DNA of 64,000 nt, taken from assembly GCF_013122565.1 (NCBI RefSeq), contig NZ_CP053258.1. The stretch is one strand, 5' to 3'. This DNA comes from Escherichia coli (GTDB taxonomy: Bacteria > Pseudomonadota > Gammaproteobacteria > Enterobacterales > Enterobacteriaceae). Shown one piece after another: positions 20,895 through 23,545 of this stretch. The notes below the pieces were generated by a model. The model searched no databases. It saw only the letters and a program-made list of their open reading frames with translations, and was not told the DNA's origin. Within the stretch, counting starts at the first letter, position 1. The number at the start of each line of letters is the position of its first letter. Both the position numbers and the translations under genes were made by a program.

Positions 20895-21416
20895 ATGTCA
20901 AAGCCAAAATACCCTTTTGAAAAGCGCCTTGAAGTCGTGAATCACTACTTCACTACTGATGATGGTTACAGGATCATCTCGGCACGTTTTGGTGTCCCCC
21001 GAACCCAGGTCAGGACATGGGTTGCCCTCTATGAAAAACATGGAGAAAAAGGTTTAATTCCCAAACCTAAAGGTGTTAGTGCTGATCCAGAGTTGCGTAT
21101 TAAGGTCGTGAAAGCTGTGATCGAGCAGCACATGTCCCTTAATCAGGCTGCTGCTCACTTTATGCTTGCTGGTAGTGGTTCTGTAGCCAGGTGGCTGAAG
21201 GTTTATGAAGAGCGCGGAGAAGCTGGTTTACGCGCGCTCAAGATTGGCACCAAAAGAAACATTGCAATATCAGTTGATCCAGAAAAAGCGGCATCAGCAT
21301 TGGAGCTGTCAAAAGACCGACGCATTGAGGATCTTGAAAGGCAAGTTCGATTTCTTGAAACGCGGCTTGTGTATCTAAAAAAGCTGAAAGCCTTAGCTCA
21401 TCCCACGAAAAAGTGA
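20895..21416 (+). CDS. insJ: IS150 OrfA (InsJ), HTH transposase subunit
   Basis: 173-aa ORF matching IS150 InsJ; A AAA AAG slippery heptamer at 21377-21383 near its 3' end. Confidence 0.95.
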   Translation: MSKPKYPFEKRLEVVNHYFTTDDGYRIISARFGVPRTQVRTWVALYEKHGEKGLIPKPKGVSADPELRIKVVKAVIEQHMSLNQAAAHFMLAGSGSVARWLKVYEERGEAGLRALKIGTKRNIAISVDPEKAASALELSKDRRIEDLERQVRFLETRLVYLKKLKALAHPTKK

Positions 21417-22264
21417 AAGTACTCAACGAGCTAAGGCAGTTTTATCCTCTTGATGAGCTTCTCAGGGCTGCGGAGATACCGCGCAGTACGTTTTATTACC
21501 ATCTAAAGGCTCTCAGCAAGCCTGACAAGTATGCGGACGTTAAAAAGCGTATTGGTGAGATTTATCATGAGAATAGAGGCCGATACGGATACCGTAGGGT
21601 AACGCTGTCTCTTCATCGAGAAGGGAAACAGATTAACCATAAAGCTGTTCAGCGCCTGATGGGAACCCTCTCACTTAAGGCAGCGATTAAGGTCAAGCGA
21701 TACCGCTCTTACAGAGGAGAGGTAGGGCAAACCGCCCCCAATGTTCTCCAAAGAGATTTCAAGGCTACGCGGCCAAACGAGAAGTGGGTTACCGATGTTA
21801 CTGAATTTGCAGTCAATGGGCGCAAGCTGTATTTGTCTCCAGTAATAGATCTCTTCAACAATGAAGTTATTTCTTACAGCCTTTCGGAAAGACCTGTGAT
21901 GAACATGGTTGAGAATATGCTCGATCAGGCATTCAAAAAGCTTAATCCTCACGAGCATCCTGTTCTGCACTCTGACCAGGGATGGCAGTATCGTATGAGA
22001 AGATATCAAAATATCCTTAAAGAACATGGTATTAAACAAAGCATGTCCAGAAAAGGCAATTGTCTGGATAATGCTGTGGTGGAGTGTTTCTTTGGAACCT
22101 TAAAGTCGGAGTGTTTTTATCTTGATGAGTTCAGTAATATAAGCGAACTGAAGGATGCTGTTACGGAATATATTGAATACTACAACAGAAGAAGAATTAG
22201 CCTGAAATTAAAAGGTCTGACTCCAATTGAATATCGGAATCAGACCTATATGCCTCGTGTTTAA
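21413..22264 (+). CDS. insK: IS150 OrfB (InsK), DDE transposase catalytic domain
   Basis: 283-aa ORF in the -1 frame relative to insJ, overlapping by 4 nt; expressed as OrfAB fusion by -1 frameshifting. Confidence 0.95.
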
Positions 22265-22366
22265 CTGTCCAACTTTTTGGGGTCAGTACAAAGTGAGGCT
22301 GCCTCTATGCTTCAACAACATAAGGTTAGCCTCTTACTCGTTGGAAATCAACACAGGAGGCTGGGA

Positions 22367-22520
22367 ATGCCGCAGAAATACGGATTACTATTCGTTAATA
22401 GTGATTTGTTTCACGCTTTTATTTTTCACCTGGATGATAAGAGATTCACTGTGTGAATTGCATATTAAACAGGAGAGTTATGAGCTGGCGGCGTTTTTAG
22501 CCTGCAAATTGAAAGAGTAA
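22367..22520 (+). pseudogene. hokA: hokA toxin gene, apparently frameshifted
   Basis: ATG at 22367 behind aggagg SD gives MPQKY (HokA N-terminus), but the HokA body SLIVICFTLLFFTWMIRDSLCELHIKQESYELAAFLACKLKE lies in another frame; one extra T near 22391 relative to the sequence implied by the 50-aa HokA. Confidence 0.6.
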
Positions 22521-22526
22521 GAGTCT

Positions 22527-22555
22527 TCGGCGGGAAATTATTCCCGCCTTTCTTA
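22527..22555 (+). terminator. hok 3' stem-loop (fbi/terminator-like)
   Basis: Hairpin ggcgggaaattattcccgcc followed by tttctt, just after the hokA stop. Confidence 0.5.
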
Positions 22556-22679
22556 CGGTGTTGGGTATTCTCAATGCACCCTAATTTATTTCTTTAATGA
22601 ATGTTTTTTTTAAAAAATACGCATGGATTTGGCTATTAGATAAGTTTTTAATCGGGAACAGGAATGGTTCGGAGCCTTC

Positions 22680-23051
22680 ATGAATAAACTGCTTTTACTG
22701 TTGATAATGCTTTATCAACGACATCTTTCTCCTCGCAAAGGATACCGCTGTGCTTACAGTGTGTTGTACCAAACGCAGGGATGTTCGGGAGCAGTCAAAG
22801 AGATTATTCAACAGAAAGGTGTTATTGCAGGCTGGGGCGATATACGTCAGCGTTTTGCAGATTGCCGACTTGCGGCAAAGACAATCAGGCAGAAGCAACA
22901 CCTGAACGAGGTAATACGTAAAAAGAAGAATAATGATTGTGATTGTTCCGGGTGTGATGGTGCGGTCTGTCGTGATTGCGACATTCCGGTGCCGGATCTG
23001 GATTGTTCCTGGGACTGTTCTTCTCTACATTTAAAGCGGTTTTTCCAATAA
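22680..23051 (+). CDS. YidD-like (haemolytic-domain family) small protein with Cys-rich C-terminal region
   Basis: 123-aa ORF, ggag SD 4-9 nt upstream; YQRHLSP, GVIAGWG and DIPVPD motifs parallel YidD YQRLISP / GVIKGSW / DDPVPP; 7 Cys in the last 40 residues. Confidence 0.5.
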   Translation: MNKLLLLLIMLYQRHLSPRKGYRCAYSVLYQTQGCSGAVKEIIQQKGVIAGWGDIRQRFADCRLAAKTIRQKQHLNEVIRKKKNNDCDCSGCDGAVCRDCDIPVPDLDCSWDCSSLHLKRFFQ

Positions 23052-23080
23052 AAAAATCCCCGCCAAATGGCAGGGATCTT
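23049..23080 (-). terminator. cspA rho-independent terminator (probably bidirectional)
   Basis: Hairpin atccccgccaaatggcagggat flanked by A-run on + strand and T-run on - strand; matches the cspA terminator as I recall it. Confidence 0.7.
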
Positions 23081-23104
23081 AGATTCTGTGCTTTTAAGCA
23101 GAGA

Positions 23105-23317
23105 TTACAGGCTGGTTACGTTACCAGCTGCCGGGCCTTTAGCGCCGCTTTCGATGGTGAAGGACACTTTCTGACCTTCGTCCAGAGATTTGTAACCATC
23201 GTTCTGGATAGCAGAGAAGTGTACAAACACGTCTTTAGAGCCATCGTCAGGAGTGATGAAGCCGAAGCCTTTGTCAGCGTTGAACCATTTTACGATACCA
23301 GTCATTTTACCGGACAT
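23105..23317 (-). CDS. cspA: major cold-shock protein CspA
   Basis: 70-aa [73 protein letters not shown], exact CspA. Confidence 0.97.
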
Positions 23318-23476
23318 AGTGTATTACCTTTAATAATTAATTGTGCCTTTCGGCGATATGGCGTGCTTTACAGATTTTTGAAGCGTTAAAGGAAATGCAC
23401 TACGAGGGGTATCAACGATAACTCTTGAAGAGGACTTGCCTTACTACACTGCTTTAATGGTCTGTACGTCAAACCG
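23318..23476 (-). promoter_or_regulatory. cspA long 5' UTR (cold box / RNA thermosensor)
   Basis: Reverse complement begins acggtttgacgtacagacc..., the recalled 5' end of the ~159-nt cspA leader. Confidence 0.7.
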
Positions 23477-23545
23477 TTGATGTGCATTAAGCCACGCATT
23501 GGCGGGTGATGCAACAATTATTTTTCATATTTATGATTAATCGGT
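23477..23545 (-). promoter_or_regulatory. cspA promoter with AT-rich UP element
   Basis: On minus strand ttgcat (-35) and gcttaatg (-10 region) preceded by ataaatatgaaaaataattg. Confidence 0.55.

Follow-up and report, generated by a model that had tools for sequence, protein, structure and literature searches.

The gene at positions 22680-23051 (plus strand) of a 64,000-nucleotide stretch of Escherichia coli DNA (contig NZ_CP053258.1; the whole stretch is referred to as the window) is a genuine accessory protein-coding gene, a second and divergent paralog of YidD, and not the canonical yidD gene. It begins with ATG and comprises 123 codons plus stop, and its product is identical to WP_171460172.1. 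We regard this identity, together with the evolutionary history outlined below, as highly probable. As a whole, the data are best explained by an accessory YidD paralog with a distinct function and a thiol-rich tail, a reading to which we assign a probability of roughly 0.6.

The likeness to YidD, proposed in an initial annotation made from the letters alone, was borne out by profile searches. The NCBIfam equivalog model for YidD, TIGR00278.2, has a cutoff of 40 bits and matches residues 3-69 of the window protein with 75.4 bits, compared with 91.4 bits for canonical E. coli YidD. The Pfam PF01809 match (25.2 bits, E=1.4e-5) extends over residues 3-64 and takes in no more than positions 2-58 of the 67 in the model. 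The initial annotation did not recognize the open reading frame (ORF) as a known gene, and on this point it was mistaken: RefSeq already lists WP_171460172.1 as “membrane protein insertion efficiency factor YidD”, UniProt likewise uses the name YidD, and the PGAP label in the genomes of carriers is yidD. Identity to canonical E. coli YidD amounts to 33% over 57 amino acids in BLASTP (E=5e-7). Moreover, the carrier strain LHM10-1 (99.2% identity to the window at this locus) additionally possesses an intact canonical operon, rpmH-rnpA-yidD(85 aa)-yidC-mnmE, and consequently the paralog is not the canonical gene. In the loci inspected, neither rnpA nor yidC lies beside members of the subfamily described below, which thus lack the rpmH-rnpA-yidD-yidC context there. 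TIGR00278.2, which is typed “equivalog”, scores the subfamily paralogs at 64-75 bits, well over its 40-bit cutoff, and it is due to this over-reach that PGAP gives the name yidD to two different genes of one genome.

Canonical YidD itself is little understood; to our knowledge a single functional paper and no structure are available. The canonical protein (P0A8C8-type, 85 amino acids) and the window protein share the YQR-x-[LI]-SP motif in helix 1, the G-[VI]-x-x-G hairpin region and the same three cysteines, since C24, C35 and C62 of the window protein fall on C31, C37 and C64 in a hidden Markov model (HMM) alignment. Both are small, basic and devoid of a transmembrane segment. They differ in that canonical YidD has SPLLGPHCRF where the window protein and its subfamily have SPxKG[YF]xCA, and in the core that follows: the canonical C-[RK]-[FY]-x-P-[ST]-C-S has a Cys1-Cys2 spacer of 5, whereas the window protein reads CAYSVLYQTQGCS, with a spacer of 10. 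The replacement of the CRFxPTCS block noticed in the initial annotation is thus real, and corresponds in the HMM alignment to a 5-residue insertion between Cys1 and Cys2. Furthermore, the His after Cys3 is Arg in the window protein, the canonical C-terminal HP..GGxDPVP is unmatched (Pfam model positions 59-67 are unaligned), and a 20-residue basic linker and a Cys/Asp-rich tail of ~38 residues (86-123) are added. The genes differ in context as well, the accessory paralog lying next to cspA and the core canonical gene next to rnpA/yidC. Among the motif parallels drawn earlier, those of YQRHLSP with YQRLISP and of GVIAG-W with GVIKGSW were recovered by BLASTP and HMM alignment, but that of DIPVPD with DDPVPP was aligned by no tool. 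DIPVPD does resemble DDPVPP but sits 40 residues further on in the window protein, and its region is kept in Enterobacteriaceae (IP[VLF]PD) and Actinobacteria (IPIPF) only, not across the subfamily.

The ORF is not a peculiarity of E. coli, since the subfamily of which it is a member comprises roughly 2,000 clusters. A word-indexed search of 5.8 billion proteins yielded 29 clusters, and an exhaustive profile search of 1.84 billion representatives returned 2,543 matches at E<=1e-3 and 1,831 at E<=1e-10; the size of ~1,800-2,500 clusters is counted at 50% identity. On the subfamily HMM the window protein scores 147 bits and canonical E. coli YidD 37.6 bits, and since the latter score would be non-significant in the 1.84-billion library, the subfamily matches are not canonical YidD. 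The top 150 matches included 144 new proteins, all of which carry the SPxKG-type core (142 exactly, two off by one residue), and in 143 of these 144 the Cys1-Cys2 spacer is 10-11, versus 5 in canonical YidD. The subfamily signature is YQRxxSPxKG[YFW]xCA[YH]-x8-[GS]CS, after which come the basic linker and the tail rich in Cys and Asp. Within the domain, Y12, Q13, S17, P18, K20, G21, C24, A25, C35, S36 and C62 are invariant, the three cysteines among 134 members. Tails have a median of 75 amino acids and 7 Cys, with Asp (10.6%) and Cys (9.7%) as the commonest residues, and the basic stretch comes before the Cys-rich part. The window protein holds every invariant residue and has 7 tail Cys, equal to the subfamily median; its one deviation is Trp 111.

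When one genome per species was searched (100,044 species), 130 loci with YQRx[LI]SPRKG were found, in Rhodobacterales, Burkholderiales, Neisseriaceae, other Gammaproteobacteria, Deinococcus, Abditibacteriota, Actinobacteria and cyanobacteria, and Foldseek matches add members from Vibrio and Pseudomonas. Database names of members are all “YidD” or “hemolytic domain protein”, and we found no database entry for the SPxKG/Cys-tail subfamily. Nor did we find a paper on a second or Cys-rich YidD in the searchable literature, in agreement with the earlier description of the gene as uncharacterized. Judged by sequence, the subfamily is distinct, widespread, sparsely distributed and, in the searchable literature, unstudied. 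Short-tailed members have near-invariant endings, GVCCCG[PG]IPIPFRF in Actinobacteria (L041-L090) and Deinococcus (L025/L040) and CIVIPCCIPI in cyanobacteria (L080/L083), that is, cysteine strings beside hydrophobic and proline residues. One 197-residue member (P0021; L008 4261-4854) lies on a phage- or prophage-like contig, with many small unannotated ORFs on the same strand and a Hydrolase_2 cell-wall hydrolase.

These comparisons bear on whether the gene encodes a redundant or condition-specific YidD isoform that aids YidC/Sec insertion, with a tail that is dispensable or regulatory. According to Yu et al. 2011 (as cited in PMC8082313 and PMC3573977), canonical YidD helps YidC/Sec-dependent insertion. 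The score above the TIGR00278 equivalog cutoff, the retention of YQR..SP, the three cysteines and the G..G helix-hairpin region, and the use of the name YidD in all databases would favor such a role. However, identity to the canonical protein is 33% only, the Cys1-Cys2 core is altered, the last 9 positions of the Pfam model are unmatched, the gene is never beside rnpA/yidC in the loci examined while an intact canonical copy coexists with it, and the subfamily is cleanly separated from canonical YidD by score. We therefore find a redundant isoform unlikely.

The gene is old at its locus. The 455-bp segment that is specific to carriers (22591-23045, gene and upstream region, delimited by pairwise alignment with a non-carrier) occurs in ~2% of complete E. 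coli genomes (112 of 5426), always on the chromosome and in single copy. All other complete E. coli genomes, including K-12, have an unrelated ~59-bp spacer between the same flanks, and the absence from K-12 stated in the initial annotation is confirmed by this survey. The stop codon of the paralog lies in the right flank common to carriers and non-carriers (AATAAAAAAATCCCC). Among the carriers are some livestock isolates as well as strains with the label 405, which suggests ST405, and the commonest allele is present on >300 contigs. Orthologs with 49-61% identity occupy the same place in three species of Klebsiella and two of Superficieibacter, with the gene order glyQ-glyS-(hok)-ABC-F-gene-><-cspA-yiaG-...-yiaF-ghrB in Klebsiella, and the 90%-identity protein cluster holds alleles of E. 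fergusonii and cryptic Escherichia lineages. The synteny and the E. fergusonii alleles indicate repeated loss of an old gene and not a recent insertion; at the glyS-hokA-cspA locus of Enterobacteriaceae its presence is the ancestral state, and ~98% of E. coli have lost it. Its G+C content shows nothing unusual relative to the neighborhood. A deletion scar or ABC-F remnant upstream of the E. coli gene was considered and rejected, since neither the intergenic sequence of Klebsiella nor the spacer of non-carriers shows detectable homology to this region.

Selection has maintained the N-terminal domain. In comparisons among Escherichia, Klebsiella and Superficieibacter, saturation is reached at synonymous sites (proportion of synonymous differences, pS, 0.65-0.9), and the N-terminal 65 codons show a nonsynonymous divergence (dN) of 0.13-0.21 and a ratio of nonsynonymous to synonymous divergence (dN/dS) of about 0.05-0.09. 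Within Escherichia, dN/dS of this domain is 0.09-0.21, giving an overall range of 0.05-0.2 for the domain. Within Klebsiella and within Superficieibacter, domain and tail alike have values of 0.05-0.09, and the tail compared between E. coli and Klebsiella reaches about 0.3-0.4. In all six Escherichia alleles examined the ORF is intact over its full 123 codons, and in all carriers listed of a spread sample of 40 a yidD coding sequence is annotated under the match. The N-terminal domain is, on these substitution patterns, under purifying selection and the tail is fast-evolving. Saturated synonymous sites combined with low dN/dS in the domain mark a real gene and refute the explanation that the ORF arose by chance within an intergenic insertion. 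In its favor are only the small size of the ORF and the missing promoter consensus, and HMM matches, syntenic orthologs under purifying selection and thousands of relatives are opposed to it; we give it practically no weight.

The window protein consists of a YidD-like helical domain (residues 1-65; 22680-22874, plus strand, as for all segments; net charge +7), a basic linker (66-85; 22875-22934; +6) and an acidic Cys/Asp-rich segment that is predicted to be disordered and is fast-evolving (86-115; 22935-23024; 7 Cys, -7), followed by residues of net charge +2; domain and linker together carry +13. Its cysteines are at residues 24, 35, 62, 87, 89, 92, 97, 100, 109 and 113, the last seven being those that the initial annotation had counted in the C-terminal 40 residues. 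That annotation also spoke of a hydrophobic N-terminus, which is correct for MNKLLLLLIMLY, though the best 19-residue Kyte-Doolittle mean of 0.43 reveals no transmembrane segment in the protein. A signal peptide or transmembrane reading of this stretch was rejected, as it forms helix 1 of the conserved domain and its maximal hydropathy is 0.43. AlphaFold2 (AF2), run with 134 sequences, modelled helices at residues 2-15, 25-30, 35-46 and 48-84, the linker being an extension of the last, long helix, with a predicted local distance difference test (pLDDT) of 80-91 for residues 21-80; the pLDDT given for the model rose from 58 with 25 sequences to 68.7 with 134. The Cys-rich tail, for which structure prediction had been proposed, has pLDDT <50 over residues 88-123, and no metal-site geometry is readable from it; such values are as compatible with metal-dependent folding as with its absence. 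Foldseek with the AF2 model retrieved nothing in the PDB and, in AFDB50, only other proteins automatically named YidD; sequence searches of the PDB with the window protein gave no match.

How such a protein might act can be sketched as follows. The basic helical N-domain with its three invariant cysteines would be attached to the inner membrane as a peripheral protein on the cytoplasmic side, the location reported for canonical YidD. The tail, acidic, rich in thiols, of low complexity and reduced in the cytoplasm, would coordinate metal ions or act as a thiol/redox-reactive appendage, and would give the protein a function distinct from that of the housekeeping rnpA-yidD-yidC copy. The cytoplasmic membrane-peripheral placement is drawn from the reports on canonical YidD and from relatives that bear a transmembrane segment, and by this analogy we rate it about as probable as its opposite. 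In the latter relatives (P0159, P0160, L018 2084-2869 and P0124) a transmembrane helix follows the Cys tail and an Arg/Lys cluster precedes the helix; by the positive-inside rule, this cluster puts the YidD-like domain and tail of these members in the cytoplasm. Three of the four share an extra conserved domain of ~110 residues (...LRVL..VDGK.Y.S.I...DARV..G..L.V.G.V.DEF...GQRF.Y..KRRWH) without Pfam match, and in long members such as P0159 Pfam found PF01809 only. That the tail binds metal or is redox- or acyl-reactive is a speculative suggestion from its composition, in line with the metal- or redox-dependent membrane-associated protein proposed in the initial annotation, and we hold it possible though less likely than not. 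It resembles bacterial metallothionein-like peptides (SmtA/BmtA, MymT) in being short, disordered-looking, about 23% Cys, with CxC/CxxC-like spacing, and in its placement in a reducing cytoplasm; this is a resemblance and not membership, as the tail has no sequence or profile similarity to the metallothionein families of Pfam, is Asp-rich and fused to a YidD domain, and its Cys positions are not strictly conserved. A role as precursor of a ribosomally synthesized and post-translationally modified peptide was rejected, there being no adjacent maturase among neighbors that comprise hokA, cspA, ABC-F, glutathione S-transferase (GST), thiolase and other unrelated genes.

A tentative alternative, which we consider rather improbable, is that the SPxKG/Cys-tail proteins are not YidD in function at all. 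They would instead form an unrecognized cytoplasmic membrane-peripheral family, whose tail might serve as a metal-binding buffer or chaperone, or undergo a reversible oxidation or S-acylation that tunes membrane attachment. If so, the CxC-type C-termini, the actinobacterial GVCCCGPIPIPFRF ending and the Rhodobacterales GST/beta-oxidation operon would be clues to thiol/acyl chemistry, and to call its members “insertion efficiency factor” across the board, as is now done, would misannotate the entire subfamily. To compare neighborhoods, ORFs within ±4 kb were clustered in 82 loci, with context look-ups and ten further loci examined by eye. In 13-15 Rhodobacterales loci the gene belongs to a beta-oxidation cluster of the order acyl-CoA dehydrogenase-GST-gene-thiolase-FadB, and sits between GST and thiolase with 4-bp overlaps or short gaps. 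The cluster (L007 5331-7776, L009 1385-3599 and 13 further loci among L015-L061) is preceded by MerR-type regulators. Enterobacteriaceae have their glyS...cspA neighborhood and Kocuria its own neighbor set.

Several observations weigh against an accessory paralog with a distinct, thiol-dependent function. No gene partner is conserved across orders in the loci examined, where synteny is at the level of the order only, and guilt by association was consequently abandoned. Membrane association is an extrapolation from canonical YidD, and the hydrophobic moment (muH) of helix 1 is 0.33 in the window protein versus 0.70 in canonical YidD, so that the helix is hydrophobic and not clearly amphipathic. 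The tail has no confident predicted fold in AF2; Pfam at E<=10 finds PF01809 only in the window protein, and no metal-binding or metallothionein family in 134 members. Individual tail cysteines are replaceable in Escherichia, where C109Y occurs and Trp stands at position 111, a Cys of the CxCDC motif in all other enterobacterial orthologs. LHM10-1 carries R19H within the signature motif. Tail dN/dS within E. coli is about 0.5-1, a value that rests on very few substitutions, and the E. coli copies may drift. Finally, no sigma-70 consensus promoter was found in 22250-23450.

The last of these points would also fit a decaying relic in E. coli, an intact ORF without present function on its way to a loss that is complete in 98% of strains. 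Such decay would agree with the presence in only 112/5426 genomes, with frameshifted or truncated variants in public data (P0002, P0010 and P0018 from Escherichia, P0012 and P0014 from Klebsiella), with the tail dN/dS and the distribution of variable positions among 15 Escherichia protein variants (20/58 in the tail versus 7/65 in the domain), with the substitutions at ortholog-conserved Cys positions and at R19, and with the promoter result. The surviving Escherichia alleles do show, by these substitutions, relaxed constraint in the tail, consistent with widespread loss. On the other hand the coding sequence is annotated in all listed carriers of the sample of 40, the 123-codon frame is intact in 6/6 alleles with an N-domain dN/dS of 0.09-0.21 within Escherichia, and the commonest allele is found on >300 contigs. 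We consider a relic somewhat unlikely, and continue to prefer an accessory paralog with its own function.

The net charge of +13 in the N-domain and linker raises the further idea of a basic small protein associated with the ribosome or with RNA, in which domain and linker would bind rRNA or the ribosome. In Klebsiella a 539-residue ABC-F ATPase lies between hok/glyS and the paralog gene (L004 3263-4882, L005 3295-4914, L012), 87-119 bp upstream of the latter and on the same strand; in NCBIfam it comes closest to “ribosomal protection-like ABC-F”, with 341.5 bits, short of the cutoff of 380. A coevolution study coupled PF01809 with L36, L34 and L32, and its authors judged this probably spurious (PMC6822775). 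The coupling concerns canonical YidD, whose gene is in the rpmH operon, and the ABC-F neighbor is confined to Klebsiella and absent in E. coli and at the corresponding position in Superficieibacter. We consider this explanation very unlikely.

In the window the gene is wedged between a hokA remnant and cspA, just as initially described. hokA (22367-22520, plus strand) is frameshifted, its frame breaking after MPQKYGLL, and PGAP likewise calls it “frameshifted” in the near-identical strain LHM10-1; it is followed by its own terminator hairpin at 22529-22548. Directly 5' of hokA, as in K-12, is an IS150 transposase ORF (InsK-like, 283 amino acids, 21413-22264). In the carriers 50579417 and ST2747 this IS150 is likewise present but hokA is intact, and carrier 19KM1831 is without IS150. 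The Rfam model of the sok antitoxin, RF01794, gives a full-length match at 22213-22369 (plus strand), just before the hokA start, at 38.3 bits (E=1.3e-6), which is under its gathering score of 59. A 23-residue “hypothetical protein” annotated by PGAP (WP_212738860.1; ysaE in K-12) is antisense to the hokA 3' end and terminator (L001 4198-4269, about 22497-22568 of the window, minus strand).

This neighborhood brings up a small lytic or toxic protein belonging to the hokA toxin locus. PF01809 was named “haemolytic domain” since B. subtilis YtjA lysed cells when expressed (PMC3573977), and the gene lies directly downstream of hokA. YtjA is in the same Pfam family as the window protein but is of the canonical short type, and the window protein, with no transmembrane segment and no match in PADLOC or PHROGs, shows no evidence of lytic activity. 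Moreover, hokA has its own terminator and is present in nearly all E. coli without the paralog gene, and in K. aerogenes the paralog gene occurs although no hok gene is called there. This alternative is accordingly highly improbable. A phage or defense role was similarly rejected for the window protein, as it has no PHROGs or PADLOC match.

With respect to expression, the ORF is preceded by a GGAG Shine-Dalgarno at 22671-22674 (plus strand), read from the sequence 5 nt before the ATG; the ORF and this element have exactly the sequence given in the initial annotation. Downstream, cspA (23105-23317, minus strand, 70 amino acids) is convergent with the paralog, and the cspA intrinsic terminator, a hairpin with a U7 tract at 23053-23080 (minus strand), starts two bases after the paralog stop codon (23049-23051). 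The Rfam cspA mRNA model spans 23050-23478, and its edge at 23050 meets the stop codon. The initial annotation had rightly placed the stop codon at this hairpin, and had further proposed that both transcripts share one terminator, a claim that holds in part. On the cspA strand a strong 12-bp hairpin of -21.7 kcal/mol (z -3.2) runs into U7. Read on the paralog strand, the structure reaches only -15.2 kcal/mol (z -1.2), the bases after it are CUUAGAUU, in which a U tract is missing, and it resembles a terminator only weakly. The convergent genes thus adjoin one hairpin that is a canonical intrinsic terminator only for cspA, and it is possible that transcription from the paralog reads through, in antisense, into the 3' end of cspA.

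In conclusion, the finding flags the equivalog model TIGR00278 as one that takes in non-equivalent paralogs. For E. coli the stakes are small, as this is an accessory gene of ~2% of complete genomes that may drift towards loss, and the finding is of modest interest for this organism, while it matters somewhat more for YidD-fold biology. A separable family of YidD paralogs, with altered cysteine geometry, a thiol-rich tail and thousands of automatically labelled clusters, would offer a second entry point into that fold.

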